Origin: Trypanosoma brucei
Taxonomy: Eukaryota
Assembly (NCBI GenBank): GCA_000002445.1
Contig: CM000208.1
Coordinates: 3,552,001-3,616,000 of the forward strand
Length of the DNA: 64,000 bases
Direction of reading: 5' to 3'
Shown here: positions 35,351-64,000 of the stretch, piece after piece
How the letters are laid out: every line of letters starts with the position of its first letter
Position numbering within the stretch: the stretch's first letter is position 1
The notes under the pieces: model-generated
What the model was told of the DNA's origin: nothing
The model's input: the letters and a program-made list of their open reading frames with translations, nothing else
The model's database searches: none
Position numbers and translations under genes: made by a program

Positions 35351-35411
35351 ATTTTTGTTGCTGCCGTTGACTGTTTCTTTATTTGCATTTAATTAAATCT
35401 CAAACAAAAAG
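35351..35411 (+). promoter_or_regulatory. Polypyrimidine tract plus AG: candidate trans-splice acceptor for IFT52.
   Basis: atttttgttgctgccgttgactgtttctttatttgcatttaattaaatctcaaacaaaaAG lies upstream of ATG 35443. Confidence 0.45.
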
Positions 35412-35442
35412 AAAAAAATCGTACACTCACAACTACTTTGCC

Positions 35443-39448: not shown

Positions 39449-39472
39449 ATATATATATATATATATATATAT
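39449..39472. repeat. (AT)12 microsatellite about 45 nt upstream of the IFT80 start.
   Basis: atatatatatatatatatatatat. Confidence 0.9.
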
Positions 39473-39513
39473 TGTTTTTACTTATATTTTGAATCCCCAT
39501 ATTTCCTTGAAAG
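39473..39513 (+). promoter_or_regulatory. Polypyrimidine tract plus AG: candidate trans-splice acceptor for IFT80.
   Basis: ttgtttttacttatattttgaatccccatatttccttgaaAG lies 3 nt before ATG 39517. Confidence 0.5.
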
Positions 39514-39516
39514 CAC

Positions 39517-41865
39517 ATGCGGTTGAATATTACGATTCCCAATGAGCACCACGATGATGCCTGCACTTGCGTTGCGGTGTCGTTGACGGGCGATGTGCTA
39601 AGCGCAGGTGATGATTTCGTCTTACGGCGCTGGAGCCCTAACGGGGAGCCGATGGGTAAAGTAAAGGAATTTGATAGCTGCATCACGTACATTGCGTGGG
39701 TGCCGCTACAAGGCGGACGCAAAGGTCGCAGTGCCAATACCGGATCTGTAGAGGGGAAGGGAAATTACCTTGTGGCTTGCGCTGATGGAACAATCTCATT
39801 TATGAATACGTCTTCTGACCGTGTGGAACGTACCATCGACGCGCACACTGGCACGATAACAGGTGTTGTGTACTCTGGAGATACCTCTTCTATCATTTCT
39901 TCTGGTGAGGATGGGTGTGTTAAGGTTTGGTCACAGGCTGGTATCCCTCGCACAACTCTCGTCTCGGCGGGGAGGTGTGTCTATGGCATTTGCTGGGGTT
40001 CGGAGACAACAGAGCTCGGTGGCGATTGTGTGCTTTACTGTGTTGGTAGCGAGGTGACCATCAAACCTCTCAATCCAGCGGTGAAGAAACAGTTGAAGTG
40101 GAAGGCTCACAATGGGATTGTTTTGGCCGCAGACTGGTCACTTATGACAGGGTTCATTGTCACAGGTGGCGAAGACGGGACCTACAAGGTATGGGATCCG
40201 TACGGCCGCAGTATTTACGTTTCCGCTGCAGGTGGACATCCATGTACTGCTGTGAAGTTTTCAGCTGATGGTGAAATGTTTGCGGTGGGGTCCTTTATGA
40301 ACATTCGGGTATGTGACAAGACGGGGTGGAGTCACACATATGAACGACTTTCTGAGGGAAGTGCGCTTTCACTGCAGTGGACCGCTGATGGAACGCAGGT
40401 GGTTATGGGGTGTGGGAGTGGTTCTGTGTGTACTGCCCAGCTTATAGACCGAAAGATGTACTGGAGCCACTTCTGCGTCACTTTGGTAGACGGAAATAGA
40501 CTGCTTGTTCAGGATGTACTCACAGACGCGGTCGAGGAAGTAGAACAACGTGACAAGGTCATCAAAGTAGAAGTGGGTTACGGATACCTTGTTTCATGTA
40601 CCACAACGCAATGCGCATGCTATCCTATTGACCGCCTTTCTGCACCAGTGCAATTTGATCTCCGTGATGTCGTCATTACGCTAATCCTTGGTCAGAAACA
40701 CTTGTTGCTGGCAGATTGCAACTCTGGAATGCAGATTTACTCGTATGAGGGTCGTCTCATTTGCACCCTTCGTCTCCAATCGTTCCTGAGACCAGAGATT
40801 ATGGCGCCCGATCTTGTCTCCCTTTCGCCGGACACAGTTGCAATTCGAAATCCCGCTGATCCAAGAAAAATCCTTTTCTTTGACACCACTAATGGGAAAG
40901 CGATGGAAGATGCAACCATTACTCATCATCTTGACGTCATTTCGCTGGAGTTGTCGCAGCACGGCGAACTGAGTGAGCGCAAGATTGCCTTCGTGGATCG
41001 GAACCGCGACATGCACTTTGGAGCAGTGCATCGCAAAGTTGGAGCTGCGCAAAAAATCAGCACCATGACTTCCAGTTTAGCGTGGCACGGTGAGCATGAA
41101 ATCCTCGTTGCGATTGCGGATGGACGACTCACGACGTGGTACTATCCAACCATTCTGTTTTCCGACAGGGGTCTGCTGCCCACGACAAAGACTGTGAGAG
41201 ATGATGGTGGAGACGAGTTTTCGCGGAATGATCGAATTGTTTCGTTTTCTGGCACCCGAGTAAGCATTCGACGGGGAGTGGATGGCGCCCTCTTAACATT
41301 TAACACCTCACCGTATCCCTCCTTCATTTTCGAGCACGTGGCACGACACGACTTTTCGAGCGCCACGCGCCTCGCGCGCTTCTTGGATGAGAAACCTCTA
41401 TGGGGCATTTTGGCCGGCCTCGCCCTTCGGCACGGTGACCTGAATGTGGTGGAAATTGCATATGGTGCCCTCTTTGAACTTGACAAGGTACGCTATATTC
41501 GGTACCTAAAGAGCATTCCCACACCGGAAGGTCGGCAAGCGGAACTAGCTTTGTTTCAGCGCCGCTCAGCTGAGGCGGAGCGCATTTTACTTCAGGCTGG
41601 TCTCATATACCGCTGTATTGATATGCATACCCGATTGTTCAACTGGGAGCGCGCTTTGGAAGTCGCAGCGGAGCGGAAGACTCATGTAGACACCGTGCTT
41701 GCGAGGCGGCGGAGGTATCTCGATGCTGTAAAGAGGACAGAGGATATTCCTCTCTTTAAGGAGCTCGGTGCGTCTGTCCGTGTAGATTGGGAAACGGTTG
41801 TTGAGAAGGTGAGACAGGAGGAAGAGAAGGAAGCTCAGCGGCCTGGTGCCAAGCCCTACCAGTAG
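39517..41865 (+). CDS. IFT80: Intraflagellar transport protein 80 (IFT-B, WD40 beta-propellers plus a C-terminal helical region).
   Basis: MRLNITIPNEH...SAGDDFVLRRW and TIKPLNPAVKKQLKWKAHNGIVLAADWS...GGEDGTYKVWDPYGRSIY...FSADGEMFAVGSF...IRVCDKTGWSHTY...LQWTADGTQVVMGCGSGSV match human IFT80 MRLKISLLKEP...CSDDHQIVKW / [27 protein letters not shown]...AGEDCKYKVWDSYGRPLY...WAPDGELFAVGSF...LRLCDKTGWSYAL...IAWSIDGTQIAGACGNGHV. Confidence 0.9.
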   Translation: MRLNITIPNEHHDDACTCVAVSLTGDVLSAGDDFVLRRWSPNGEPMGKVKEFDSCITYIAWVPLQGGRKGRSANTGSVEGKGNYLVACADGTISFMNTSSDRVERTIDAHTGTITGVVYSGDTSSIISSGEDGCVKVWSQAGIPRTTLVSAGRCVYGICWGSETTELGGDCVLYCVGSEVTIKPLNPAVKKQLKWKAHNGIVLAADWSLMTGFIVTGGEDGTYKVWDPYGRSIYVSAAGGHPCTAVKFSADGEMFAVGSFMNIRVCDKTGWSHTYERLSEGSALSLQWTADGTQVVMGCGSGSVCTAQLIDRKMYWSHFCVTLVDGNRLLVQDVLTDAVEEVEQRDKVIKVEVGYGYLVSCTTTQCACYPIDRLSAPVQFDLRDVVITLILGQKHLLLADCNSGMQIYSYEGRLICTLRLQSFLRPEIMAPDLVSLSPDTVAIRNPADPRKILFFDTTNGKAMEDATITHHLDVISLELSQHGELSERKIAFVDRNRDMHFGAVHRKVGAAQKISTMTSSLAWHGEHEILVAIADGRLTTWYYPTILFSDRGLLPTTKTVRDDGGDEFSRNDRIVSFSGTRVSIRRGVDGALLTFNTSPYPSFIFEHVARHDFSSATRLARFLDEKPLWGILAGLALRHGDLNVVEIAYGALFELDKVRYIRYLKSIPTPEGRQAELALFQRRSAEAERILLQAGLIYRCIDMHTRLFNWERALEVAAERKTHVDTVLARRRRYLDAVKRTEDIPLFKELGASVRVDWETVVEKVRQEEEKEAQRPGAKPYQ

Positions 41866-44826: not shown

Positions 44827-46056
44827 ATGTTTCAGCGATGGTCGTTTGCCCTGTGTCGACCTATCGTTGCGGCAGCACAGGTATCGCAACAGCAAGTGCC
44901 TCCATCTGAGGAGCCACGGAACGAGTCAGGTGCCGCAAACCCTCCGCTGGTGAAGGAAGAGTTCCTTCGGCAGTTTCGCGAGCGTTTGGCGAATGACAAG
45001 ACGGGAAGAAATTCATTGGAGGGGTTTCTTGACCTTCCGGAGAATCTTCCACCCACCGCCGCCTCAATTGGACCACTGAAGCGAGGTAAGGAGCCTCTTC
45101 CTCCTTGGTTGAAACTCAAAGTTCCTATGGGAGCATCGAGGCAGCCGCGGTTTAACAAGATACGGCGCAATATGCGTGAAAAACGTCTAGCTACTGTGTG
45201 TGAGGAGGCCAAGTGCCCAAACATCGGTGAATGTTGGGGAGGAGGTGATGAGGAAGGGGACGGCACCGCCACTGCCACAATCATGGTGATGGGGGCACAT
45301 TGTACAAGGGGCTGCCGCTTCTGTTCCGTAATGACGAGTCGCACACCTCCACCACTAGACCCAGAGGAACCACGCAAAACTGCTGATGCAGTCGCTGACA
45401 TGGGTGTGGAATATATAGTTATGACTATGGTGGACCGTGATGACTTGGCTGACGGTGGCGCTGCTCATGTTGTGCGCTGCGTGACGGCCGTGAAGGAGAG
45501 GAATCCCGGACTACTTCTTGAGGCACTTGTTGGGGACTTTCACGGAGACCTCAAGCTGGTTGAAATGGTTGCTGGTTCACCTCTCAATGTCTATGCTCAT
45601 AACATAGAGTGTGTCGAGCGAATTACGCCAAACGTACGAGATCGACGCGCTTCTTATCGACAGTCCCTTAAGGTACTTGAGCACGTGAATAATTTCACTA
45701 AAGGAGCTATGCTCACCAAGAGCAGTATCATGCTTGGGCTCGGGGAAAAGGAGGAGGAGGTGCGGCAAACCCTTCGTGACCTGCGGACGGCGGGCGTTTC
45801 TGCTGTGACCCTGGGCCAGTACCTCCAACCCTCACGGACGCGGCTAAAGGTCAGTCGCTACGCCCATCCTAAGGAGTTTGAGATGTGGGAAAAGGAAGCG
45901 TTGGATATGGGCTTTTTGTACTGTGCATCGGGGCCCATGGTACGGAGCTCCTACCGAGCTGGTGAATATTACATTAAAAATATTTTGAAACAGCGGGAGA
46001 CTGTCGAAGCTCCGTCAGTGTCAGATGGAGGGAATGAACCAAAGGATTCCGAGTAG
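44827..46056 (+). CDS. LIPA: Lipoyl synthase (radical-SAM LipA/LIAS), mitochondrial type with an N-terminal extension.
   Basis: [16 protein letters not shown] (C-x4-C-x5-C auxiliary cluster), [22 protein letters not shown] (radical-SAM CxxxCxxC), [36 protein letters not shown] and [13 protein letters not shown] are collinear with human LIAS. N-terminus [18 protein letters not shown] looks like a presequence. Confidence 0.9.
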
Positions 46057-47130: not shown

Positions 47131-50100
47131 ATGGACGCTGACGAGGGCAGTGCGCCGGACGAGGAGCAGAGTATGGTGGTTGACCGAGTTGCACTCTCAA
47201 TAAGTGATATTTCATGTATGCGCCTTGATGGTTGTCGTGTACCGTCGAGATCCTCCAGAGCGTCGCATAGGTGGTCACATCCACAACGGCCGCACCGTCA
47301 ACCTGTTGGAGATGTTTCCTCGTCGTTGTCGCATGCCGCATCGCAGGGAAGTAGAACGTCACCACCTTCTTTTGTCTTTGCGACTCGCGTGTGCCGAAGT
47401 TTTGACTCAGTGAGTCAATCCGGCGGTGTGTTCGATTCGGTGGTGAGAAATCATGATGGGGAGAGCGTCAGAAGCAACTCAGAGGTAGTTAAGCACAACA
47501 CGTGCTTAGAGCATTCGCAGAAAACATGCCTTTCGTCCGTTTCGCTCCCACCGTTGAGTGAAGCATGCAGGGGGCACGAGGTAAGTTATGGTCTCAGCAG
47601 AAGAAGAATGTCTTTCACTTCATCGTTTTCTCCTCTACCCTGTTCGCCGGTACCGAAAGAACTCTCCCCCGGCCTACTTACATCCATACCGTGGAACCTC
47701 CCGACGCTAGGGTGGAAAGGGATGACACCAACCGCTTCTAACGTGCATGAGGGCCAAGCGACGAATTACGGTGAGGAGCAATGTGGGGAAAGAGTTGCAA
47801 ATGATACCCGCGCGTACAGAATTCTCAATATGAGCAATTCTGGAGGCGCCGTCGCGACCGATGCGAGTGTTTCTAGGGAACGGTGGTTCCACGTGCAACA
47901 TCAGAGCTTCCGCAAACGCTACATAGGGCACCTCAATTGTGTTTACGCAATATACAGGTCTCTCGTGCCAAGGAACTCTCCCCCGGCGGCTTCGCAGAAT
48001 ATTTCTCTCGGAGACACCCCTACCCTTGACCGCCGCGTCCGGTCGGTGGCTCTGTCATCTGCGTCAACTGTTACCGGTGTGGCTGCCGGTTACTACACGC
48101 TGAGTGACAGTGCCTCGACACGGTGCTCAGGCGGGCAAAACGTGCCCGTCGTACCGCGTGCTGTGAGGGGTTTCTCGCCTCGGCGCCGTGGGAGGCAGCG
48201 GGCACTTTCTTCTAGGGAGATGGACCCATTTATTCTAGGACTTATCAAGAGAAGAGTCTTATTCAGGACCACCATATTTTGTGAGTACACATATAACTGT
48301 ATTAAACATTCGGAGGAGCTACGGCTCTCGTCGTCAGAGATAGTCGAACCGTATACTGAGCAGGAATATGCGGTTTCTTCTCATTCGCAAAATGGTAGTG
48401 CTTTTACAACTTCTGTGGGTCGAGCTGAGAGCGACCGTGTGGCTACCAGCGCATCTGACGGGTCGTCTTCCATATTTTTTGATGATACACATAGAACGGC
48501 ACCACCACCAGGGAATGATGGAAAAAGACGAACTTCAGTAGTGTCCCCACCGCATGAAGAAACACCAATGGCTGTTCACCACCGGACGCTAACCCGGCTA
48601 CAAACGTTAACAACAAAGGTCCACAGTGTAGACCGTGTCATGCGCACAGTGGATAATGAGGAGGATGATCTTGTTGTTTATGTAGGTATGATTTTAATGG
48701 GTTGGCTGGAGGTCGTTGATCTTCTTGGATCTGGTACGTTCGGGCAGGTTTTTCTCTGCAAGGACTTGCGAATCGCCAACAAAACTTTTGTACACCCAAG
48801 CCAGATAGAGGGAGATGACTTTCAGTACTGGCAGTGCTCTCACACGTATATACCATTCGGTGATCCCTCAATGGTACCAACCCATACACCACTTGTGGCT
48901 GTAAAGGTTGTCAAAAGCCGCGAACTATTTGAACAGCAATCTGCTCGTGAGGCTGAGATTTTAGTGCACGTCAGTTCGCAAACGGCATCGCAAGAAGAGC
49001 AACCCGCAGAGGAGCAGCAGGCGTTTCCGGCACTGTCCTTTTCAGATCCACCCGTGCCCGACTACCGTTGCGAATATGTGGGTAAGATACTTGCGCACGG
49101 AATATGCTATGGTCATCACTGCATAGTTATGGAACGATATGGTGTTAATTTGTTTGAGTACGCGATGGCACGTGGTTTTAAAGGTCTTCCCATGTATCAG
49201 ATACAGGACATAGGCCGAAAAATCTTGCTGGGGTTAACTCTTTTGCACGAGGAATGCCACGTAGTGCACTGTGACATAAAACCCGAAAACGTTTTAATTA
49301 CACTCGATTCCTGGCTTTCTGCCAATCCAGTCCATATGGCGCTCACGGTCGGTGCTCATACACCGGGTTCTGGTGCCTCCGGAGCCATTTCACTGGATGC
49401 ATCGGCTGGGCAGTTGCATCAATCGTTGAGATGGCCGGCAAGCAATGGCTTACCTCCACTCTCCGATTCGAAATTACCGAATGGCGCTGTGCACTCCCCT
49501 ACACCTCGGCGTATGCAGATTGCTGCTTCCACCGAACGGATGTCGATGTCCTCCATTTTGAGGGAGGTTGCACCAGCTGGTTCGGCGGCAGCGAGCTCTC
49601 CTGGACTGAATAACGGTGCTGAAGATGATCCGAACCTTCCTCGCATTCCTGCATCGCCGTCTCTTTTACCGCTGAACATAAAGCTCATTGACTTTAGCAG
49701 TAGCTCTTACATTGGAAAAGGAATCCATACGTATGTACAGTCCCGCTACTATCGCGCACCAGAGGTCATTGTTGGTGCCGGCTATGGGCCAGCCATTGAT
49801 GTGTGGTCTACTGGCTGTCTTTTGGCGGAACTGCTGTTAGGCCTTCCACTTCTACCGGGAGACTCGGATCATCATCAACTCTCCCTCATTGAGGAAATGC
49901 TCGGGCCGTTGCCTCTTTCATTGTTAGCGAAGGGTGCAGCCACGCTCGAATACTACGATGTGGATGATGTTGAATTGAGAAGTGAAAGTGCAGGCGCGTC
50001 TGCATCAGAGGAAACTCCTGCGGGTCACAAAAAATCACCCTCATTTCGTCTCTTGAGTGAGGAGGAGTATCTTCGCCATCACAGGGATGCAAAACCAACA

Positions 50101-50418
50101 AAGGGAAAACGGTATTTTCAGTTCCACACACTTGCCGAACTAATCAGGAAATGTACAGCTAGCAATGAGGAAAGGTGTATTGCAACAGGGTATAGTCCAT
50201 CCGCTGCCATGGATGCCAACGTGATGGAAATGGTCTCAACGCAGCAACCGAGGAAAGAGATTGCTGACGAGATTTCGCGTCATCGATTCCGTTTTTATGA
50301 TTTACTAAAAAAAATGCTCCACGGCGATCCCGAGAGGCGCCTTACGGCCCGTGAGGCATTGGCACACAGCTTTTTTCAAGAAACACCAAAATATTTACAG
50401 GTATACTCACAACGTTAG
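47131..50418 (+). CDS. DYRK-family (CMGC) protein kinase with a roughly 500-aa S-rich N-terminal extension and a large insert in the catalytic domain.
   Basis: DH-box-like DNEEDDLVVYVG. Gly-loop LGSGTFGQVF, VAVKVVK, catalytic loop HCDIKPENVLI (the DYRK HCD variant), then a ~129-codon insert (49300-49686) before IKLIDFSSSSY (DFS in place of DFG). Activation loop IHTYVQSRYYRAPEVI (DYRK YxY-region, H-T-Y). DVWSTGCLLAELLLG. Confidence 0.8.
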   Translation: MDADEGSAPDEEQSMVVDRVALSISDISCMRLDGCRVPSRSSRASHRWSHPQRPHRQPVGDVSSSLSHAASQGSRTSPPSFVFATRVCRSFDSVSQSGGVFDSVVRNHDGESVRSNSEVVKHNTCLEHSQKTCLSSVSLPPLSEACRGHEVSYGLSRRRMSFTSSFSPLPCSPVPKELSPGLLTSIPWNLPTLGWKGMTPTASNVHEGQATNYGEEQCGERVANDTRAYRILNMSNSGGAVATDASVSRERWFHVQHQSFRKRYIGHLNCVYAIYRSLVPRNSPPAASQNISLGDTPTLDRRVRSVALSSASTVTGVAAGYYTLSDSASTRCSGGQNVPVVPRAVRGFSPRRRGRQRALSSREMDPFILGLIKRRVLFRTTIFCEYTYNCIKHSEELRLSSSEIVEPYTEQEYAVSSHSQNGSAFTTSVGRAESDRVATSASDGSSSIFFDDTHRTAPPPGNDGKRRTSVVSPPHEETPMAVHHRTLTRLQTLTTKVHSVDRVMRTVDNEEDDLVVYVGMILMGWLEVVDLLGSGTFGQVFLCKDLRIANKTFVHPSQIEGDDFQYWQCSHTYIPFGDPSMVPTHTPLVAVKVVKSRELFEQQSAREAEILVHVSSQTASQEEQPAEEQQAFPALSFSDPPVPDYRCEYVGKILAHGICYGHHCIVMERYGVNLFEYAMARGFKGLPMYQIQDIGRKILLGLTLLHEECHVVHCDIKPENVLITLDSWLSANPVHMALTVGAHTPGSGASGAISLDASAGQLHQSLRWPASNGLPPLSDSKLPNGAVHSPTPRRMQIAASTERMSMSSILREVAPAGSAAASSPGLNNGAEDDPNLPRIPASPSLLPLNIKLIDFSSSSYIGKGIHTYVQSRYYRAPEVIVGAGYGPAIDVWSTGCLLAELLLGLPLLPGDSDHHQLSLIEEMLGPLPLSLLAKGAATLEYYDVDDVELRSESAGASASEETPAGHKKSPSFRLLSEEEYLRHHRDAKPTKGKRYFQFHTLAELIRKCTASNEERCIATGYSPSAAMDANVMEMVSTQQPRKEIADEISRHRFRFYDLLKKMLHGDPERRLTAREALAHSFFQETPKYLQVYSQR

Positions 50419-53731: not shown

Positions 53732-55300
53732 ATGGGGGGAGGCGCTTGCAAAATGGAGCGCCATGACGTGCAGCCGAGGGTTTCCAGTAGTCGGGTCAGC
53801 GATTGCTCCACGCCCAGGCAACAGGGAGTTACTTCCGATTCAAGTGAAACCGTTAAAAAAGAAGAGGAACAGCAACAACAACCGATTCTTATACCAAGAC
53901 AACCTTTGGGACCAGGAGCTACCACACCGCCACGGCCAATGGGTGTTGTTAAAATTGGTGACCCACTGGATATTAGAAGTGGTGTCGGAAGCCCACAATG
54001 TGATGTAACTCTGACAACAAACAACACTTGGAACCACTCAACCTCGGCCTTCACTACGAGGTTACCCCATTTTGTGAACACGGAGGGATTTGATGCCTCC
54101 ACAGGTGTTAGGTGGACGGACAACGATACGGCACCAAACCGTCCTCGATCCCGTCGAACATCTATACTAGTAGAAAAGGAAAGTGCGGCTTATCATAACG
54201 GTTATCCTGCTACATATGATGGTGACAGGCACCAGCGGAGTTACTCTCGTGGAGGAAGTTGGTACAAAAATGCCGAGAACAGTGTTTTCCTCCGTTCCAC
54301 TGATATGCCGTCCTTTGCTGGGAATAGCGCACGTTACCCTGGTGATGAGAATAGGAACAAGTCGTTTGCGTCGGCTGCAAATAGTTCATACTTTTTTGGT
54401 GCCAGTTGCAGCCGTCGGAGCGTTGCCCGCAGCGGGACTTGCGTCGTGAACCTGGCAGAAAGCACGAAAACTTTGAGAGGGGCGATGGCAACCTTAAGAA
54501 AGCATGTTCAGCAGGGAGCGAAACCTCTGTCATTGCGAAGTTCATATCGGGATGTTGGTGGTTCCATGGGTTGCTCTTATAATGACGACGTCCCCAGGTC
54601 GAGACTACCGAGCATTTTTACTGCTAACAACGCTATTACGCCTGCACCGGATGGGTCAATGTATGGTGAGTATAATGCATTTAATCGTGATTATGATGCT
54701 CCGGGGGTGTTGGGTGGTGGAAGGGGCGCGATGTTCCCCAACGTTCCCATCAATGGAGGTTTTAAAAAGTCTTCTGTACCCGCGCCACATGTGGGTTCCT
54801 TGTTAGAGTTAGTGGACACTTCTACCGTTTCAGTGTTTGCAGCGGATTCGCGTGCGGAAAGTACGGACGATGCGAATAAGCAACAGCTGCGACGAGTGGC
54901 AAACAATGTGGGGTGCAGTCCTGTTGTAAAGGTCGCATCACCTCCGCGGCAGGCTCAGAGAAATTGTAGGGTTGTTGTTCGGGAGGATTTGGATGGTGTG
55001 GAGTGGCACACAAAAAATGTCGAGTTCCCCGTAGTTGGTAGCGATGAAGGAAACAAAAGTCGCGAAGTTAGCACCACGTTTGCATTGCCCGGATCAATTT
55101 GTACATTTGGGGCCACTACTGACGTAAGTGAAGATAGTGGTCCACGCGGTTGGGTTGGCGTTGGGGGGGATTTTGGAGTTAGTAGTAGTGATTGGTATGC
55201 ACGGCAACGCAGTAAGTTAATGTCTGATGAGTCCGACGTAAACTCTAAGGATGGTGCAGGTGAAGTTGATTCCAGTGGTGACGCCGCGGAAGAGATGTAG
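53732..55300 (+). CDS. Hypothetical S/G/N-rich low-complexity protein (522 aa). N-terminus MGGGACK could be N-myristoylated and palmitoylated.
   Basis: ATG-initiated ORF on the coding strand in an otherwise gene-poor 8.7 kb stretch. Gly2 and Cys6 match the dual-acylation pattern of trypanosomatid flagellar membrane proteins (calflagin/HASPB-like MGxxC). No other domain. Confidence 0.45.
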   Translation: MGGGACKMERHDVQPRVSSSRVSDCSTPRQQGVTSDSSETVKKEEEQQQQPILIPRQPLGPGATTPPRPMGVVKIGDPLDIRSGVGSPQCDVTLTTNNTWNHSTSAFTTRLPHFVNTEGFDASTGVRWTDNDTAPNRPRSRRTSILVEKESAAYHNGYPATYDGDRHQRSYSRGGSWYKNAENSVFLRSTDMPSFAGNSARYPGDENRNKSFASAANSSYFFGASCSRRSVARSGTCVVNLAESTKTLRGAMATLRKHVQQGAKPLSLRSSYRDVGGSMGCSYNDDVPRSRLPSIFTANNAITPAPDGSMYGEYNAFNRDYDAPGVLGGGRGAMFPNVPINGGFKKSSVPAPHVGSLLELVDTSTVSVFAADSRAESTDDANKQQLRRVANNVGCSPVVKVASPPRQAQRNCRVVVREDLDGVEWHTKNVEFPVVGSDEGNKSREVSTTFALPGSICTFGATTDVSEDSGPRGWVGVGGDFGVSSSDWYARQRSKLMSDESDVNSKDGAGEVDSSGDAAEEM

Positions 55301-56552
55301 GCAAAAGAGTAGCAGAGGTGATTAATTTCTCCTACTTGGGTTCCATTTTATTACCATTATTAATTTAGGAACAACTAAATATTAACGAAATAAAGGAAGA
55401 AAACAAAAAAGAGAACGAAAAAAAAGAAAAAGAAAGAAAGAAGATAAATAAAGGGGACGTGGGAGAGCAGAAGAAAAAAAAAGGAAAAGCAAAAGGAAAA
55501 GAAGCTAGAAAAGTAATGGTGCCCATCACATGATGGCAAAAAGGGAAGTGTGTACGTGCCAATGTGGAGGTGAGGGAAGTGAACTGATCCTTTACTTTTG
55601 TCGCGCAGTTGTTATTATTGTAAGGGTTGACTATCATTATTTTTATTGGTGTTATTGTTACTATTATCATTTCAACGAGTAAAGTGAACGATCAGCAAGT
55701 GAATAAGCACGAGCAAGTAACCATTAATAATTATATTGCATACAGTTGTACAATTATGTGTGTAAATGTACCTGTGTGTACGCGTTTTTTTTCCCCCTTT
55801 ATGCTTGTATGTTCGAATCCGGGGATTTAAGTTGTTGTTTTTGTTGTTGTTGTTGGGGTTTTCAAATGTTGTGGGGGATTTCTTCTTCACTCCTCTTCTT
55901 CTTTTTTTTTCTACTTTTACGTTTGGAAGCTCGGCGATACAGAACGCAGAACTTTTCCTTTTTTTTTTTGGTTTAATGCTTATTATTGGTACTGCTGCTG
56001 CTGTTGTCGCTGTTGTTGTTCATTCTAGTCAACATCCTCTCTCAATCGGCCCTTTCCCGTCCTTTCCATGTTATTTTCATTATTTCCACCGCAGTCGCCA
56101 CCATCGTGTTTTCGATTCCCCATCCCTCTTTCTCTCTTTCTTTCCTTTCATTTTTTTTGTTATTATTACTGTTTTCATTGTTATTGTCTCTGTTGCTGGC
56201 CCTTATTAATCGCAATTGTTACTCTTCTTTTCACCTCCATCCCCCTCTTTTTGTGTGTTGTGTGTTTGTATGTGTTTGGCTGTTGTAATTTGTTTGTTTG
56301 TTCTTTTTTCACCTCCCTCCTTCCAACCCCGCATCTTATATTTCGGGTGTCGGGACTGCAACTTCTTGAAAATACCTTTTTTTTTTAATTTTTTACGTTT
56401 GTCGTCGTTCTTTTGCCTCCCTTTTTTTTTTCCTCACTTCGGTGATACTTCCTCCCTTCCTTCCCTTTCTTTTTCCCTTTCTTTTTTGTTTTTGTATGTG
56501 TCTTATATCCCACTTTTTTTCTTTTTTGAGCAGCAAAATAAAAAAAGAAACA

Positions 56553-56557
56553 CATAA

Positions 56558-56600
<43 letters not shown>

Positions 56601-56601
56601 A
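56553..56601. repeat. Compound (CA)n(TA)n microsatellite. A second (TA)n lies at 56675-56698.
   Basis: aacacacacacacacacacatatatatatatatatatatatatataatg. Confidence 0.9.
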
Positions 56602-58347
56602 TGATAATAATAACAACGGAAACGATGATGGTGATAATATGTATAGGTGTGGATGTATATGAGGATGTATGCGTACATATATATATATATATATATATGC
56701 ACGGGGGGTTCTGAAAAGGATATAAAAAAAAACGTAGAGGCGTCATAATTTGAGTTTACTTTTTTCTGTTTTTTGAAAGGGTTTCGTCTTATTGTTTCGT
56801 ACTTTTTAAAATATCATGGTAATATGGGTAAGGAGGAAGTTTTTTTTTTTGTTCAAAAATTAACATTATGTCCGACGGTGTGTGGTTTGTGGTGCGATTG
56901 TTGTCTGTTTCGTCCGCGGTGTGCGATTTGGGGTTTGAGGGAAGCAAAAAAAGAAAAGATTTGAAATAAAGGAGGGTGTAATTTCCCACTATGGTGACGT
57001 TATTGTTGTGGGTTTTATCAGATGATTGTTTATTATTACCATTATTAGTATTACTATTACTACTACTTTCCACTGTTTCGCTTTTCTTTTTTTTCCTTTT
57101 TCCTTTTTTTTAAAAATTCTATTCCCCTCCCTTGCATCAGTTTCGATGATTAAACACTTACGTTTTGATCACAAATTTTGTGTGAAGCTTCCTCTCTTTG
57201 ACTTTAGTTTTTTTTTGTTTTTGGCGCTCCCATTTGATTTGATCTCTCTTTTTAAGTTTCGGTTTCCCACTCTGTCACCTTCTCCCCTCCCTTTAAATCC
57301 TCACTTTAGTCTTTTGTTGTATTCGGGTATCCATGTTGCGCTACGCCCAGCTGTTTGGAATATTACTTCGGAAGATGAAAAGTTCGGTTTATTTATTTAT
57401 TTATTATTTTTTTTTACGTTCTTTCTTTCTTTCTTCGACATGTTTGTTTTTTCCTATTCTCGAAATCAAAGGCATCACCAACACCACCACCACCAGCAGA
57501 ATTAAGTGAACACATCCGCGAGTTACTGCCATGTGTTAATCCCTTTGCCTTTCTACCCTTCGATGATTTTAAAAAAAAAATTTCCCTTTCGTTTCATGTT
57601 TTTCATCTATATTTTCTTATTCATCCCTTTCTTTCTTTCTTTCTTTTTTCTTTCTTTTTTTCATCCCTTTACATATATAAATAAATAAATATATATATAT
57701 ATATATATATATTTGAGATGTCTTCTTCCCTCGTATCCTCTGTTGCCCTCATTTTACGCGTCCAGAAACTTCCATCATGAGGTGTGACTGCTTTCTTTCT
57801 CCTTTTTGGTGTTAATATGTCTTCAATTCCCTTATAACTTATTGTAATGTTAATTTACCATTCAAAAGGGTTGAAAGATAGAGGGAATGTGTTTTGTTTC
57901 TGTGATATCCTGCTTTAAATTTTTGTCTTTTAATATCTTATTAAGCTTTCTACTCTCTCTCTTTTTCTTTTTTTTCTTTTTGTCCCCCTCCTTTAAAGTT
58001 TTTTCTCGCATATTTTCTCTTGTCCCGTCATCTTTTTGTGCTGTGGTTGTTGGGTGCCGCACATTTTTATGCATACCTCGTTGATGCGGTGATGAAATGC
58101 TGACTTTTTTTTTTTAAAAAAAAGAATCTATCGCGAAGGAGGCTCGATATGTTTGTTGGTTCATCTGTGTGTAAACACATAAATATGTCTTTTTATGCAT
58201 GATTGCCATCAATTTGTTCGTTTCTTTGTTTGCTCGGTTTGTTTTCGTTACTTTTTGTTGTTCCTCATCAACCCGTGTTCCCTCCTTCCGTGAAGGTGGT
58301 TTTAATCTGTTTGTGAATCCGTTTTGTTTCTGTGTGTTTGTGTGTCT

Positions 58348-58392
58348 TTGTTGTTGTTGTTGTTGTTGTTGTTGTTTTGTTTTGTTTTGTTT
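58348..58392. repeat. (TTG)9 followed by (TTTTG)4.
   Basis: ttgttgttgttgttgttgttgttgttgttttgttttgttttgttttt. Confidence 0.9.
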
Positions 58393-59310
58393 TTTTGTGT
58401 CATCTCACTTCATCTCCTTCCCCATTTTTTGTCTTTCCATTATGCATGTGTACTTACATTGCGTATTCTTTTTTTTTTCCCCCTCTTCCTTCTTCTCTTC
58501 AGCTCTCGTACTTTTTGTCTTATTTCCTCTTTCCTTCGCTACATTCTGTTTTGGGGTCTGCAGCTGCCAAACATATATATATATATATGTTTTATTTATT
58601 TAAATGGTGTTACATTTCCCGCTGCTTCTTTACGAGCATTCAAAACTCTTCTCTTTTTCTTCTCCCTCTCTTCTCCACTTAATCCGTCTATAAATCTGCT
58701 TCTTCATGTATTTAGGCGTTTACCGGCTTCCCTTCAGTGGTTGCACCTCCTTACCCCACCAAAAAAAAAAAATGATTTTGGGATCGGAGAGGTTTAAAAG
58801 GTTGAAGGGAGACGGTGGGAAGAGGAAAGAGGAAGACAAACAGACAAACAAACAAATGCTCAAATATATAAAGAAAAGTACAAGGGACAAAATGTTAGTA
58901 GCGGTGGTGGCACGAGGAGATAATAAAAGAGGGGAAACCCTTCCGAATCGGAGATACGAGATGGAAATTAGGAAGTGCCACACACGCCGGAGAGCATCAG
59001 CGTAACAAAACGTGATGTCACTAATGCAGTAAGCAGGAATTAACCAGCCAAGCAGCCAGGACTGAATTACCAGAGGAAGTCCCAATAACAACAAAAGGAA
59101 ATTAAAACATTTGGTCATATATATACGCTTGTTTGTTGTATCTACTTCCCTCAGCTGGCGCTTCCTTTTTTTTTTTGGTGCGTGTGTGTGTTTTTGGATA
59201 GTCTCGTGAGCAGGTTTGTGAAAGTAAGTTTACTTTGAGATGCCCATTCTTGGTACAAATTATTATATTCTATTTGCTGTGACAGTTTGGACTATTACAC
59301 CTACTTGACC

Positions 59311-59360
59311 CGATTTTTTCCCTCTCTCTCTCTCTCACTACGACCCTTGTTTGTATTTAA
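59311..59360 (+). promoter_or_regulatory. Polypyrimidine/(CT)n tract upstream of the WD40/Sfi1-like gene: candidate trans-splice signal.
   Basis: cgattttttccctctctctctctctcactacgacccttgtttgtattt, followed by a (CA)n run and an AG before ATG 59466. Confidence 0.4.
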
Positions 59361-59465
59361 ATTCACATCCGCATTTATGCGTGCACACACACACAAACAC
59401 ACACACACACATACAAACATTCATTTAAGCATACCTGTGCGGCTCTCGGCCAAACATAACGCCAG

Positions 59466-62400
59466 ATGACGTATAAGGAAGTCGCGCTTTCGTCTCAGTT
59501 AAATGGTGTGTTCCACTGTGCCGCAGTTGTTACCCTTCGAACAGCACCGGCAGACACGCTTCACCACCCGGTGTCGAGCAGTGGGACACACAAGCAAGTT
59601 CCTGATGGAGGTGTGAAATGTGAGGAACTCGAAGGAGATAATCGCCGTAGCCGCAGCCCTTCCATAACTGTTTTCACAGTTTTAAACCCCAAAGCGGCGT
59701 CGTCTTCTCTGCAAGTCCGCCAACTCCCCCAACAACCCCCAGAGGAAATGCGTTGCACGCTGTGGGTAGGAGCAAGTAGCGGTGATATTGAGGTGCGGTC
59801 GGCGGTACAACCTGACCGTGTACTTCGTTTTGTACCAAAAAAGTCGCGGGCCGTTGTTACTTCACTCATTCAAATTGGTTCTAGCCGCGTGGTCGCCGGC
59901 CTTTCCGATGGGTATATTCGTGTATTTGACGCCGTCACGCTGTGCGAGTATCAGCAGACGCGAGCGCACACGTCTGCTGTCAGGTGCCTGATGGCCGTGG
60001 CAACCCCAATAGTACAAGGAGTTCAACCAGAATGTGAATTTACACCTGCCCCAGTTTTCCTGACGGCGTCTTCCGATCGTACAATAGCAAAGTGGGATGC
60101 TGTATCCTTACAGTGTCTCTGTAGGCTGAAGGGACACACGTGTTCCGTTTCAGCATTAGTGTCGACACTTAACGGTGTCTTTGTTTTTAGCGGTGCTGAC
60201 GATGGGTCGCTGCACATGTGGTCGATGGTCGATAATACACAAGTGGTGGGGAGGCCCACTACCGTTGCCAAGAGTGCGGGTAAAAAAAAGCGAACTGGAA
60301 AGGACCTTTTAGGACCTTCTCCTCATCGACAAAAGTCACAATTACCGAAATGTAGCTTGGAGGAACCTCAAGTAAAACAAACGAGCCAAGCGAGCGGTCG
60401 TGGAGCTTCTCAGGCCAGGCCGGGGAAGTGTCGTACGAGTAGGTCCGCTTCCGTAGGAATAATGAAGGTGCGGAGCCTGCTGCGCTCGCCTTCTATCGGA
60501 AGCCCTCAAAGGCATCGGGTTGACGGAGGGGGAACAGGGCGCTCGCGTTCAATTGCAGCCATGCAAAGACATGGTCTCTTGCCAAAAATTAACTGGGGAA
60601 AAGATCTTGCGTTGCCTACCACTGCCGCTAGGGCACCAAATACTGCCACGAGGGATTCTGACAGTGACAGGCAATTTGATGGAAGTTCAGATGACGAAAA
60701 CCTGTTGACTGCGGAGCCTGTTATACCTGTCGATGGCCAAGGCTCAGCAGTTTTCTGTCGGAGTGGGCGAAATGTTGGTGATGGTGTGGGCGCTCCGCGA
60801 GAGGGAAGGAAAGGTCGAGGCAAGCTGAAAAAGAAATCTGCGCAGCAAGTGCAGGTGTCACGCTTCGCGGATGTACTCGCAAAGCTTCAAGGCCCTGTTT
60901 CTGATAGCGCGATGGGTTGCCGCCTGGCGGCGGTGCATTCGGAGCCTGTTGCATCTGGAATAGAGGGTGGTACCCTCCTTTGGCCATTGAAGTGTGAGCA
61001 CGCTAAGCGGATTACTCACCTGGCCATTGTTTGGGACCGGTTTTTGCTAAGTGGGTCGTCTGATGGTGAAGTCAAAGTTTTAGCTCTGCCTTCTGGCCGA
61101 TCAATTCGCACTGTCCACAGAGGTTACACTCCTGTGACAGGTATGACTGTCGATAACGCTCGTTGTTTGCTGTGGATTGCAACAGCGGATGGCTGCTTTC
61201 ACGTGCACAATATGTTGACTCCGGATTTGCAACAACTGCATGCATGGCGAGACCTCAGCACTCCACGACCCCTTTTAGTACCAATGACAACGAATCGCTT
61301 GTTATGTCAGCTTTATCTACTGGCAGCACCTGGAAGTAAGAAGAAGTTGTTTGACAGTCGTAGTGCTGGAAACAAGATCAAGCCAAAGATCAACTTGGAA
61401 AGTAGAAATATCAATTGTAAACGGAAGAAGACGGGACAAGTAGCCCCTACCGACCAAGGAGCCCAGTCTGGGTTAGTTGAACCTGAAGAAGCGGTTCAAG
61501 CGCCGCCTAACGCAACATTGGCGTGTATTCAGGTGGATGATGGGGACGATGAGGCACTGGCCGATATAGGTTCGCTTCGCAAGTTGGACGTTGCTCATAT
61601 GAAAGCGCGCTGTACAATCGCCAAAATGGAATCGAAAGAGGAAGTGTTCCGTAGGGTATTGCGCCGACCTGTAACCGACGATGGCATGGAGTTGCGTGAG
61701 TGTTTGTTAAAGGAGCAAACACGCGTTGTCAACGCCTTATATGGTACTCGCTTTCATTTTTCTCTACGGGATTCGTTTAGGCGCTGGATGGCCTGGTCAA
61801 CGCGGCGCGTTAGACGGTACCAATGTATGCGAAGGGTGCGGTTTCTGGCGGCAACTAATCAGGAGCGCCTACTCGGCTGCTATTTTAGGAAATGGAGGCG
61901 GCACCGTGTCTCACAGAGACTTGTAGAGCAAGACGTGCAGATAAGATCGTTGGAGTCTCGTTCCTTCAGTACAACGGTGGAGCGCTGTGCGAAACCTTGT
62001 GGTGTGGCTCTTGGTGGCAGGGCATGCGTCGCCCTCGCAAGCACACAACGGCGCAACCTGCTGCATCGTTACTACAGATACTGGCTTCATCACGTCGTAG
62101 GTTTACGGCAGGCGCTGTCGCGTTCTGTGGCCTTCAACCGTTTGTTCCTCTCGTTTGACTCCAAAGTGTGTGACAGTGCCTTCGTGTTCCGTCGGTTAGC
62201 AACGACCAACCAGTGCGCACAACGACAAAAGCGGGCGCTACAACTGCTGCTGCTGCGGATGGAGGCTCACTACCGTCAACTGCAGCACCGCTGTATGCGA
62301 AGGTGGTTTTCCTTTCTCCAGGATCAAAGAGAGTCGCGGCAGACATACAATCTCGTGGAAACGCTCACATCTGTGTTAGTCAATGGGGAGGCACTTAGGA

Positions 62401-64000
62401 TGAGTGCCTACTTCAAGTGGTATAGGTTCGCATTGTTTGAAACAAAGCTTCACCGCTTTGATGAAGAGCGCGCGACGCTGCAGCGGGAGTGGATCGTTGT
62501 GCAGAACGCACTAGAAAGTAAGGAAACCGTGGCTAACCTGAAGCAGGAAGAGGTGCAGTTGGAGGTTGAAATTGCCCAGTTAGCATATGAGCGTGATGAA
62601 ATAGACTCACAGAATGTCTCGCTTCGTGCGGATATTGTACACATCCAAATGAGCAAGTCTCTTGACTGTATTCTCGCCGGGTACGTTGACGCGGAGGATA
62701 AACTGAAGACAGTTCCGCGGTTATTACCGGAACCTCCATTTCACAGCCGCCGTTTGTGGACTTCCAGCGGCGAGCGGTTTTCCCCTGTGAATGAGGATGA
62801 CTCGTCTGCTGAGGCAGCGTTACTCAGTCAGCTGTCCGCCGTGTTGCGCGCACTCAAAGCTACGGTTTTACGTTGTAGGCGGCACTGTAGTCTTATCACG
62901 ACATCCCATGACCGGGTGCTGCGAATTCCTATTTGGGACAAGCCGGTTGAAACGCGAGAGTGGAGCTCCGGAGTTTCACATTCATCCGTTGGCGGCGATT
63001 CGTCGGCCCTCCACGGAACGTCAGGGGCTTCTTTATCAGACACACGCTATTCGAGTGAGCGCCGCAGGAGCATCGCCAGCTCCACTCATACGGTGGCGTA
63101 CCTAGCTGATGAGTTTGGTCGAACTGTGGGACGTCTTCGTTTGCTTATTGAGGAGGTCGCCAGACAAGCCGGTGCTGATCTCGAGGAGTCGACGGACCAA
63201 ACCCTGTCCGCCTTCTTGAAACACAAGAATTCCATTGGTATGGGCAGTGAGAGCATTCGGGTGATAAACGCAGAGTGCCCGTCAGTGGAGTGGCTGAATT
63301 TTGTCCCCTCCACCAAACGAGCAGAGATCCTTCCGCTCCTTGCGGATTTGGTGACCATGTATGACTCGTTTAAAGCGCATAGCGATACTGAAATAGAGAC
63401 AGGCGGGAAGACATTGTCAACTAGGGGTGCGCTCACATCTGCACCACTGCCGCTGCGGAGTTTGTGCCGGACGCAAGCGGCGATGTGGCTGGTCCGCCAT
63501 TCCGCCGTAATATTGGAGTTAATGGCACCGGGCACATGGGAAAAGCATTTAAATGTGTGGTTTTTAGCGGATTCGATGAAGGATTCGGTGGCGCTGTTCA
63601 ACCAAAATCTGGACGTAGGGTTGGCAACACCAAAGCGAACGAAAAAGAAGGAGTCATCAGCCGAACTGAAGGACACTTCTTCAATCCTGTCAGACATCTC
63701 CTTCCAGCCATCAAAGGCAGTTGTGAAGGAGAAACGCAAGAAAATTCCCAAGACTGTTGCTAGTGGTAAGGGTACCCCTAGAAAGGCGTCTTCAGTTTCC
63801 TCCCCCATCACGTCACAGCCTAGTGTGGAGAGCACACCCGTAAGATTATGGGCGTCACCCAAAGCGGCGATTGTTCAGCCACAGCGAAAGCCTGCCGTAT
63901 CCTGTAGCAACCTCCACTCTCCGGTTAGCCGCAGCGTGTGTGGACCTCTGGATGGTGAGTTTGTTGTACATGCAGCGCAACGCTCTAATTCGGTTCCCCT
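59466..64000 (+). CDS. 5' portion (at least 1511 codons, 3' end outside the window) of a large WD40-repeat protein with central Sfi1-like (LLxxx[FY]xxW[KR]) repeats and a coiled coil. Candidate centrin-binding basal-body or centriole protein.
   Basis: I translated it by hand from the ATG at 59466 (an in-frame TAA lies 9 nt upstream) and found no stop to position 64000. It is absent from the ORF track because it is unterminated. WD motifs GHTCSVSALV...SGADDGSLHMWS and LSGSSDGEVKVL. Repeats FRRWMAW, LLGCYFRKWRR, LLHRYYRYWLH, CMRRWFSF, AYFKWYRF spaced about 35-40 aa apart. Coiled coil LKQEEVQLEVEIAQLAYERDEIDSQNVSLRADIVHIQ. Confidence 0.7.
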   Translation, partial: MTYKEVALSSQLNGVFHCAAVVTLRTAPADTLHHPVSSSGTHKQVPDGGVKCEELEGDNRRSRSPSITVFTVLNPKAASSSLQVRQLPQQPPEEMRCTLWVGASSGDIEVRSAVQPDRVLRFVPKKSRAVVTSLIQIGSSRVVAGLSDGYIRVFDAVTLCEYQQTRAHTSAVRCLMAVATPIVQGVQPECEFTPAPVFLTASSDRTIAKWDAVSLQCLCRLKGHTCSVSALVSTLNGVFVFSGADDGSLHMWSMVDNTQVVGRPTTVAKSAGKKKRTGKDLLGPSPHRQKSQLPKCSLEEPQVKQTSQASGRGASQARPGKCRTSRSASVGIMKVRSLLRSPSIGSPQRHRVDGGGTGRSRSIAAMQRHGLLPKINWGKDLALPTTAARAPNTATRDSDSDRQFDGSSDDENLLTAEPVIPVDGQGSAVFCRSGRNVGDGVGAPREGRKGRGKLKKKSAQQVQVSRFADVLAKLQGPVSDSAMGCRLAAVHSEPVASGIEGGTLLWPLKCEHAKRITHLAIVWDRFLLSGSSDGEVKVLALPSGRSIRTVHRGYTPVTGMTVDNARCLLWIATADGCFHVHNMLTPDLQQLHAWRDLSTPRPLLVPMTTNRLLCQLYLLAAPGSKKKLFDSRSAGNKIKPKINLESRNINCKRKKTGQVAPTDQGAQSGLVEPEEAVQAPPNATLACIQVDDGDDEALADIGSLRKLDVAHMKARCTIAKMESKEEVFRRVLRRPVTDDGMELRECLLKEQTRVVNALYGTRFHFSLRDSFRRWMAWSTRRVRRYQCMRRVRFLAATNQERLLGCYFRKWRRHRVSQRLVEQDVQIRSLESRSFSTTVERCAKPCGVALGGRACVALASTQRRNLLHRYYRYWLHHVVGLRQALSRSVAFNRLFLSFDSKVCDSAFVFRRLATTNQCAQRQKRALQLLLLRMEAHYRQLQHRCMRRWFSFLQDQRESRQTYNLVETLTSVLVNGEALRMSAYFKWYRFALFETKLHRFDEERATLQREWIVVQNALESKETVANLKQEEVQLEVEIAQLAYERDEIDSQNVSLRADIVHIQMSKSLDCILAGYVDAEDKLKTVPRLLPEPPFHSRRLWTSSGERFSPVNEDDSSAEAALLSQLSAVLRALKATVLRCRRHCSLITTSHDRVLRIPIWDKPVETREWSSGVSHSSVGGDSSALHGTSGASLSDTRYSSERRRSIASSTHTVAYLADEFGRTVGRLRLLIEEVARQAGADLEESTDQTLSAFLKHKNSIGMGSESIRVINAECPSVEWLNFVPSTKRAEILPLLADLVTMYDSFKAHSDTEIETGGKTLSTRGALTSAPLPLRSLCRTQAAMWLVRHSAVILELMAPGTWEKHLNVWFLADSMKDSVALFNQNLDVGLATPKRTKKKESSAELKDTSSILSDISFQPSKAVVKEKRKKIPKTVASGKGTPRKASSVSSPITSQPSVESTPVRLWASPKAAIVQPQRKPAVSCSNLHSPVSRSVCGPLDGEFVVHAAQRSNSVP

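Follow-up and report, generated by a model that had tools for sequence, protein, structure and literature searches.

Five conserved tryptophan-centred repeats in a Trypanosoma brucei open reading frame assigned to WDR1

We analysed a stretch of 64,000 nucleotides (nt) of Trypanosoma brucei chromosome 10, hereafter the window, whose last 4,535 nt are occupied by a plus-strand open reading frame (ORF) that runs off the end. There is very little doubt that this ORF is WDR1 (Tb927.10.15080, chromosome 10), the kinetoplastid-specific substrate receptor of the Cullin4-DDB1 (CUL4-DDB1) ubiquitin ligase. The gene is already annotated in NCBI, UniProt and TriTrypDB, has been named and was characterised in 2017; as a gene discovery it is nothing new. 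The five tryptophan (Trp)-centred repeats that we describe in the central region are a new observation on this known protein, and the published domain map of WDR1, which consists of two WD40 repeats and a PDZ domain, is incomplete. The residual interest of the locus lies in this unreported central module and in the missing parts of the map.

Identity of the reading frame and published role of WDR1

Translation from the ATG at 59466 to the window end at 64000 gave 1,511 codons without a stop, and an in-frame TAA stands upstream of the ATG at 59457-59459, just as an earlier note made from the letters of this DNA had stated for an unterminated ORF of more than 4.5 kb. The sense frame of 59466-64000 contained 0 stops, versus 36-93 in the other five frames. 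The same note had described the ORF as the largest gene of the window and as missing from the ORF track. It is indeed the largest ORF (the next largest encodes 1,253 amino acids, aa), and it is absent from the mechanically produced list because the ORF tool leaves out any ORF touching an end of the window; the annotation does include it, as Tb927.10.15080.

A homology search matched the translation with 100% identity over 1,511 aa to a 1,634-aa protein of T. brucei brucei TREU927 (XP_827981.1; EAN78869.1; UniProt Q388A3). A T. equiperdum contig (L001) was identical over all 4,535 nt, and the frame there goes on to ...VVGEKRRE followed by TGA. The downstream extension that had been proposed as a check thus reached the stop, which is predicted at window coordinates 64368-64370; the ORF seems unterminated because the window ends 370 nt short of it, and the window holds the first 92% of WDR1 (codons 1-1511 of 1,634). 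The TriTrypDB header, found in a supplementary table, reads Tb927.10.15080, 'WD40 Repeat 1', Tb927_10_v5.1:3682966-3687870(+), 1,634 aa, and both length and coordinates match; in the same coordinate system the window is chromosome 10 3,623,501-3,687,500. The locus is further anchored by the upstream neighbours IFT52 (Tb927.10.14980) and IFT80 (Tb927.10.14990). The published DWD residues D204, W210 and D211 were all present in the translation, as were three published WDR1 phosphopeptides, SPSIGSPQR, DLLGPSPHR and KPAVSCSNLHSPVSR (PMC12222847). The gene and the antisense ORF that overlaps it are as follows.

59466..64000, plus strand: WDR1 (Tb927.10.15080), codons 1-1511; 100% identity to XP_827981.1 and to contig L001
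63086..63862, minus strand: antisense 258-aa ORF; TTG start, 240 aa from its first ATG, wholly inside the conserved WDR1 coding sequence

Absence from the mechanical ORF list could suggest a novel or unannotated gene, or a frame that is open by chance. The omission of ORFs touching the window end accounts for that absence, the protein is recorded in NCBI, UniProt and TriTrypDB, bears a name and is the subject of a paper of its own, and the distribution of stops (0 versus 36-93) speaks against a chance frame. We assign this explanation practically no probability, and it was rejected on the database records, the paper and the stop counts. The antisense ORF, one of three antisense open stretches of at least 100 aa, had been regarded as an artefact; with its TTG start and its position inside a conserved coding sequence, it is a by-product of the WDR1 coding strand and not a gene.

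WDR1 emerged from a yeast two-hybrid screen that Hu, Zhou, Han and Li made with the Polo-box domain of the T. brucei Polo-like kinase TbPLK (PLoS Pathog 13:e1006146, 2017). In that study the N-terminal WD40 region with the DWD box bound TbDDB1/TbCUL4, residues 1-300 pulled down TbDDB1 in a glutathione S-transferase pull-down, and WDR1 co-precipitated TbCUL4, TbDDB1 and TbPLK. The C-terminal domain bound the PEST motif of TbPLK, and the PDZ domain was dispensable for this binding. Immunofluorescence placed WDR1 at the basal body as well as at the bilobe/centrin arm in G1 and S phase, where it co-localised with the centrin stain. A 2025 paper on WDR2 from the same laboratory counts WDR1 among the centrin-arm proteins, WDR1 is present in the WDR2 BioID list, and its TrypTag localisation is 'hook complex (cell cycle dependent)'. 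We accept with high confidence the published mechanism, in which, at the basal body and centrin arm, WDR1 links TbPLK to DDB1-CUL4 and the kinase is destroyed. The prediction of a basal-body or bilobe protein in the earlier note agrees with the published immunofluorescence and with TrypTag, and had been published already; the established role, however, is that of a CUL4-DDB1 substrate receptor for TbPLK and not of a structural centrin scaffold.

Tryptophan-centred repeats in the central region

The central region (aa 753-1017) carries a net charge of +32 over 265 aa and contains five repeats centred on W774, W810, W873, W947 and W985, with Trp-to-Trp spacings of 36, 63, 74 and 38 residues and a mean net charge of +4.2 per unit. 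A further unit around W1009 (R6) has a pattern different from that of R1-R5. The repeats, the region that holds them and one conserved motif outside the repeats lie at the following positions; fractions give the number of orthologues out of 17, and residues are numbered relative to the central Trp (position 0).

61722..62516, plus strand: central basic helical region, aa 753-1017, five Trp repeats and the R6-like unit; from AlphaFold2 (AF2), charge and the family alignment
61734..61808, plus strand: repeat R1, aa 757-781 (...SLRDSFRRWMAWSTRR); F771, W774, W777 and R780-R781 conserved; F at -3 in 17/17, W in 16/17, W/F at +3 in 17/17
61842..61904, plus strand: repeat R2, aa 793-813 (...ERLLGCYFRKWRRH); W in 17/17, Y/F at -4 in 16/17, hydrophobic at -3 in 16/17, at -8 in 16/17 and at -7 in 15/17
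62031..62093, plus strand: repeat R3, aa 856-876 (...RRNLLHRYYRYWLHH); W in 17/17, Y/F at -3 in 17/17, L at -7 in 9/17
62253..62315, plus strand: repeat R4, looser, aa 930-950 (...YRQLQHRCMRRWFSF); W in 17/17, hydrophobic at -3 and -4 in 17/17 and at +3 in 16/17 (aromatic in 13), at -7 in just 6/17
62367..62432, plus strand: repeat R5, aa 968-989 (...EALRMSAYFKWYRFA); W in 17/17, Y/F at -3 in 17/17, hydrophobic at -8 in 17/17, F/Y at +3 in 17/17, A at +4 in 15/17
62130..62153, plus strand: motif AFNRLFLS outside the repeats, aa 889-896, where the R3 helix ends; N891 and L895 invariant and L893 nearly so in 16 sequences

The units share the form h(-8/-7)-x3-[Y/F](-4)-[F/Y](-3)-x2-W(0)-x2-[F/W](+3), where h is a hydrophobic residue, and this form is conserved across kinetoplastids. 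When all five units were compared in the 17 orthologues, the Trp was retained in 16-17 and a hydrophobic or aromatic residue at -3 in 16-17, position -4 was mostly Tyr or Phe and position +3 mostly aromatic; hydrophobic residues occurred at -7 in 3-15 and at -8 in 10-17 of the 17. Among six trypanosomatids, W774, W777, W810, W873, W947, W985 and W1009 were invariant, and so were F771, L803, Y806, L865, L866, Y870 and L977. The linkers between R2 and R3 and between R4 and R5 differ in length between species. All peptides that had been quoted as repeats in the earlier note are present in the translation (FRRWMAW 771-777, LLGCYFRKWRR 802-812, LLHRYYRYWLH 865-875, CMRRWFSF 943-950 and AYFKWYRF 981-988).

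To compare the units with other Trp residues, a position-specific scoring matrix (PSSM) was built with one class of units left out at a time. Against 2,841 background Trp windows, the T. brucei units scored at the 98.7th percentile or higher and the family median at the 99.86th or higher; the 18 other Trp residues of WDR1 scored between the 11th and the 94th percentile under the same PSSM. These scores and the column-by-column conservation indicate that the units are true internal repeats rather than an effect of composition. A compositional artefact, in which the apparent repeats of a region rich in Arg, Trp and Leu have no positional meaning, would be in keeping with an Arg content of 17.5% and with a Trp density of 2.7% compared with about 1% elsewhere. 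Against it, the Trp and the residue at -3 are conserved by column in 17 orthologues that are otherwise 18-55% identical, the leave-one-out PSSM sets the five units apart from all 18 other Trp of WDR1, and a strict form of the motif was observed 2 times versus 0.019 in shuffles of the region. The artefact explanation is thus very improbable and we regard it as excluded by the conservation data and the PSSM; the earlier note had named a compositional origin of the repeats as a refutation of its own claim, and this refutation did not materialise.

AF2, run with 16 sequences, predicted helices at aa 753-834, 846-896, 904-956 and 974-1017 with a mean pLDDT (per-residue confidence) of 72 and a pTM (global fold confidence) of 0.23. 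The pLDDT was 76-87 over R1-R2 and 59-87 over the repeat helices, and R1 and R2, 36 residues apart, lie on one predicted continuous helix of 82 residues. A compact globular helical domain for aa 753-1017 was rejected because the pTM was only 0.23 despite the pLDDT of 72; the model therefore points to no compact domain, as expected of partner-dependent helices. The hydrophobic moment was not above that of shuffled controls.

In our literature search we found no T. brucei paper reporting Sfi1-like or centrin-binding repeats in WDR1 or in the centrin arm. A full-text search for 'Sfi1' returned neither the 2017 WDR1 paper nor the 2025 WDR2 paper, and the word is absent from the latter. Compared with the 2017 description, the five central repeats, a second WD40 block (aa 499-600) and the insertion that splits the WD40 part are additions. 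As a separate observation, AFNRLFLS is among the most conserved stretches of the whole of WDR1 and lies outside the Trp repeats; we know of no motif that it matches.

Relation to Sfi1 and candidate partners of the repeats

Sfi1 repeats are defined as AX7LLX3[F/L]X2W and occur as 20-24 continuous units, with successive Trp mostly 33 aa apart (23-36 in fungi), along a single helix that is wrapped by centrins. The POC5-type pattern is [F/W/L]X2W[R/K]X21-34[F/W/L]X2W[R/K] (Azimzadeh et al. 2009), and the generic centrin triad is L8-x3-L4-x2-W1, of which positions 1 and 4 are hydrophobic in every case and position 8 is less conserved. The claim that the central region holds about five repeats matching the Sfi1 consensus stood in one part and failed in another. 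Five conserved Trp units are real, whereas the literal LLxxx[F/Y/L]xxW[K/R] occurred only once (aa 802, in R2) and three of the units are looser. Without the final K/R, LLx3[FLY]x2W matched 2 times (R2 and R3) versus 0.019 expected in region shuffles (P ~1e-4), and there were 0 matches around 106 Trp residues of neighbouring genes. T. vivax has an exact LLX3[F/Y]X2W in its R1 as well; at the LL position, R4 and R5 depart from the consensus. Positions 1 and 4 of the generic triad are satisfied by all five units, a motif that is short and not centrin-specific. Position -16 of R1-R3 is a conserved hydrophobic residue, Leu or Met, where Sfi1 has Ala. R1 and R2 approach the POC5-type pattern (FRRW-M...(31 aa)...FRKW-R), with a spacing inside 21-34 and, in T. 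brucei, Met after the first Trp; an Arg at this point is confined to L. tarentolae, Novymonas and one further sequence. The single-site form [F/W/L]x2W[R/K] was matched once in the region, which was not significant.

Profile searches gave no link to Sfi1. PF08457 (Sfi1), the family that had been suggested as a check, had no match at E ≤ 10, a range in which the HMMER filters drop most matches above E ~0.1, in nine family sequences (queries: the window protein, full WDR1, the L. tarentolae orthologue, five central regions and four divergent orthologues). A profile of the central region searched against PDB at E ≤ 10 retrieved no Sfi1p or other centrin-target chain and just a spurious adenine DNA glycosylase (E 0.012-0.025), and a 27-aa repeat-unit profile had no PDB matches at E ≤ 10. 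A synthetic Sfi1-consensus query retrieved from PDB only a designed helical protein and no Sfi1p chains. A homology search with the human Sfi1 (hSfi1) R17 peptide and synthetic repeats yielded only two single-exon fragments, insufficient for a PSSM of Sfi1 repeats. Foldseek of the AF2 model against PDB gave nothing meaningful, as expected of isolated long helices. In the reverse direction, hSfi1 R17 (PDB 2K2I chain B), a single repeat, was placed by the WDR1-unit PSSM at the 99.8th percentile (P 0.004 and 0.035 with control for composition), a likeness that stems mostly from polar positions and not from the hydrophobic anchors.

WDR1 thus shares with Sfi1 its Trp-centred units on long helices, LLx3[F/Y]x2W in two units, hydrophobic residues in R1-R3 at all four positions conserved in Sfi1 (-16, -8/-7, -3 and 0) and residence at a centrin-containing structure. 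It differs in having five units rather than 20-24, irregular spacing rather than about 33 aa, four predicted helices rather than one, Leu/Met rather than Ala at -16, extra aromatics at -4 and +3 and no profile similarity; in addition, its units sit inside an E3 receptor, whereas Sfi1 repeats make up the whole protein. The resemblance to the POC5 type consists of a few Trp-centred repeats beside a coiled coil, the lack of Sfi1 orthology and the R1-R2 spacing of 31 residues; unlike POC5-type proteins, WDR1 has Met after the R1 Trp, R3-R5 that do not fit [F/W/L]x2W[R/K] and no POC5 signature domain. Judged by its sequence, WDR1 is not a member of the Sfi1 family, since neither Pfam nor PDB gave a profile match, the units are only five and their spacing is irregular.

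The central repeats may serve as docking sites for an acidic partner, for which centrin-arm and basal-body centrins would be the most attractive candidates. Docking on centrins would put the ligase beside TbPLK and its substrate TbCentrin2. In the strongest version, the five units are genuine Sfi1-type centrin-binding repeats that each hold one centrin (TbCentrin2/4 at the centrin arm, others at the basal body) through the reversed triad L8-x3-[F/Y]4-x2-W1 and so tether the Cullin4-based ligase (CRL4)-WDR1. We consider this possible but rather doubtful. It is consistent with the hydrophobic residues at positions 1 (W) and 4 (-3) in 16-17 of 17 orthologues in all five units, with the exact LLx3[F/Y]x2W of R2 and R3 and the conserved hydrophobic residue at -16 in R1-R3, with the placing of R1 and R2 on one predicted helix, and with the basic character of the units, as expected of partners of acidic EF-hand proteins; the rank of hSfi1 R17 and the co-localisation of WDR1 with the centrin-stained basal body and bilobe also fit. 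However, Pfam Sfi1 is not matched in nine family sequences, region and unit profiles find no centrin-target chain in PDB at E ≤ 10, [F/W/L]x2W[R/K] is matched once and without significance, five units at spacings of 36/63/74/38 with variable linkers contrast with 20-24 contiguous units of ~33 aa, and the R17 likeness concerns one repeat and mainly its polar positions.

The repeats could instead form a kinetoplastid-specific basic helical module with another partner, the likeness to Sfi1 being a convergence on a generic aromatic amphipathic helix. Candidate partners are tubulin, through its acidic tails at the basal body or microtubule quartet, TbPLK, WDR1 itself (self-association, together with the neighbouring coiled coil), and calmodulin or another EF-hand protein. 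Several results favour such a module: the family is confined to kinetoplastids (among 1.84 billion representatives, the profile search yielded nothing but orthologues and one spurious match), all profile links to Sfi1 were negative, the charge of +32 over 265 aa is extreme, there are features outside the Sfi1 consensus (aromatics at -4 and +3, the WxxW of R1, and NRLxLS as an invariant motif), and the hydrophobic moment does not exceed that of shuffled controls. On the other hand, nothing indicates any specific alternative partner, WDR1 has not been reported along microtubules or on the microtubule quartet, and the published TbPLK binding maps to the 'C-terminal domain'. On balance we lean slightly towards this explanation, and consider another acidic partner or a convergent kinetoplastid-specific module at least as likely as docking on centrins.

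Several further points weigh against the overall picture of WDR1 as a CUL4-DDB1 receptor with a split propeller, docking repeats and a PDZ-like end. The CRL4 role of WDR1 depends on one laboratory; in an independent pull-down of TbCul-D (CUL4), the main table contains DDB1 and the DDB1- and CUL4-associated factors (DCAFs) Tb927.11.3190 and Tb927.8.840, and not WDR1 (PMC12816148). WDR1 is listed in one supplementary proteomics table of that paper. The docking role of aa 753-1017 is one that we infer. The single split propeller is deduced from alignments, and the PDZ match is below threshold in Pfam (20-26 versus 27 bits).

If the centrin proposal were correct, WDR1 would be the first CUL4-DDB1 receptor with its own Sfi1-like centrin-binding repeats, its five Trp helices (aa 757-989) binding TbCentrin2/4 and basal-body centrins, a claim that we put forward only tentatively. 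The ligase would then be parked on the centrin arm, removing TbPLK exactly where TbPLK phosphorylates TbCentrin2. WDR1 would also be the first candidate centrin-binding protein for the centrin arm, and a single protein would then connect centrin structures with Polo-like kinase turnover and with the duplication of organelles. The literature that we searched holds no account of how CRL4-WDR1 reaches the basal body or centrin arm, and describes no centrin-binding scaffold for the trypanosome centrin arm.

Other parts of the protein, its family and its neighbourhood

Outside the central region, the following features were delineated in WDR1.

59748..60233, plus strand: WD40 part 1, aa 95-256, about four blades; PF00400, propeller families and PDB WD40 matches, conserved in orthologues
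60057..60104, plus strand: published DWD (DDB1-binding) box FLTASSDRTIAKWDAV; D204, W210 and D211 verified, definition from Hu et al. 2017
60234..60959, plus strand: insertion rich in S/T/P/G/K/R, aa 257-498, poorly conserved; alignment, STPGKR composition 0.51
60960..61265, plus strand: WD40 part 2, aa 499-600, about three blades; propeller-family profile matches, conserved in all orthologues
62529..62681, plus strand: predicted long helix, aa 1022-1072; AF2 pLDDT 79-89
62796..63575, plus strand: conserved C-terminal blocks, aa 1111-1160 (SAVLRALK) and aa 1270-1370 (DSFKAHSD...LSTRG...PLPLRSLC); invariant alignment columns

WD40 signatures in the first third of the protein, which the earlier note had reported, were confirmed by a Pfam scan in which PF00400 (WD40) matched aa 216-253 with 41.8 bits versus a cut-off of 27; the quoted peptides GHTCSVSALV (223-232), GADDGSLHMWS (243-253) and SGSSDGEVKVL (529-539) are present. 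Propeller-family profiles matched two stretches, aa 125-260 and aa 499-587, the latter through the WDR55, WDHD1 and TEP1 propeller profiles of Pfam, and PDB WD40 proteins matched aa 147-255. The same split arrangement was seen in the orthologues scanned. The blocks of about four and three blades probably form one seven-bladed propeller, interrupted by a phosphorylated low-complexity insertion of about 240 aa. This insertion carries the published phosphopeptides DLLGPSPHR at 280 and SPSIGSPQR at 341 (PMC12222847). In the DWD box, D7, W13 and D14 fit the 16-residue consensus (Asp7, Trp13, Asp14, Arg16), and position 16 is V, not R; according to the 2017 authors, some confirmed DDB1 binders also lack this Arg (PLoS Pathog 13:e1006146).

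WDR1 resembles DCAFs, the DWD-box receptors, in its WD40 propeller, its DWD-like box, its published binding of DDB1/CUL4 and its recruitment of a substrate for ubiquitination. Unlike them, it is very large (1,634 aa) and kinetoplastid-restricted, has a DWD box without the terminal Arg and an apparently split propeller, and contains a long region of basic helical repeats as well as a coiled coil and a PDZ-like C-terminus. No human DCAF is its orthologue, and in an independent survey 27 human DCAFs gave three T. brucei matches, none of them WDR1 (PMC12816148).

Downstream of the repeats, the helix at aa 1022-1072 is probably a coiled coil, as the earlier note had proposed; in addition to the AF2 prediction, a crude heptad count found 7-8 of 8 hydrophobic a/d positions only in 28-aa windows starting at aa 1053-1066. 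The C-terminal half is otherwise variable, with conserved blocks around aa 1123-1131 (SAVLRALK) and aa 1299-1334 (DSFKAHSD...LSTRG...PLPLRSLC). The blocks at aa 1111-1160 and 1270-1370, within the reported TbPLK-binding 'C-terminal domain', are candidates for the PEST-binding surface. PF13180 (PDZ_2) reached 20.2 bits with T. brucei WDR1 and 22-26 bits with the five orthologues scanned, versus a cut-off of 27, and the match was always at the extreme C-terminus, past the window end. This PDZ-like domain (aa 1532-1629, contig L001 ~11678-11971; PYLGFRV...GDQLVRFAGY.VT.LAAFN) is the most conserved part of the WDR1 family.

When the non-WD40 part of WDR1 served as query, orthologues were recovered from T. 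congolense, T. vivax, T. cruzi and T. c. marinkellei. The central-region profile, searched against the 1.84 billion representatives, retrieved 17 proteins, all but one of them long proteins or fragments of the same architecture. Part of them came from Trypanosoma, Leishmania, Novymonas, Leptomonas and Phytomonas, and the others were transcriptome or read-assembly sequences. One candidate with five matched stretches (P0110, 602 aa) was discarded as an unrelated tandem-repeat protein. From these searches the WDR1 family looks kinetoplastid-specific. One orthologue (eukprot, P0104, 2,316 aa) has about 400 proline-rich aa past the PDZ-like domain and an odd N-terminal extension, and is probably a mis-joined gene model.

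Within the window, IFT52 and IFT80 are adjacent on the same strand at 35383-41865, upstream of WDR1; next come the genes of a lipoyl synthase (44827-46056) and of a protein kinase of 1,095 aa (47131-50418). Every large ORF of the window lies on the plus strand, and the cumulative GC skew increases steadily, in keeping with a single polycistronic unit. An AT-rich stretch at 56001-58800 (GC 0.34, AT skew -0.35), between a 522-aa ORF (53732-55300) and WDR1, holds just two short TTG-initiated ORFs (57026-57505 and 58324-58797) and is probably a long untranslated or intergenic region. The 2 kb upstream of WDR1 are not collinear position by position with the T. equiperdum contig (1,276 mismatches in 2,000), presumably owing to repeat indels. 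Directly 5′ of the WDR1 start codon, 59130-59465 contains polypyrimidine tracts, (CT)n and long (CA)n runs, a pattern typical of kinetoplastid trans-splicing regions.

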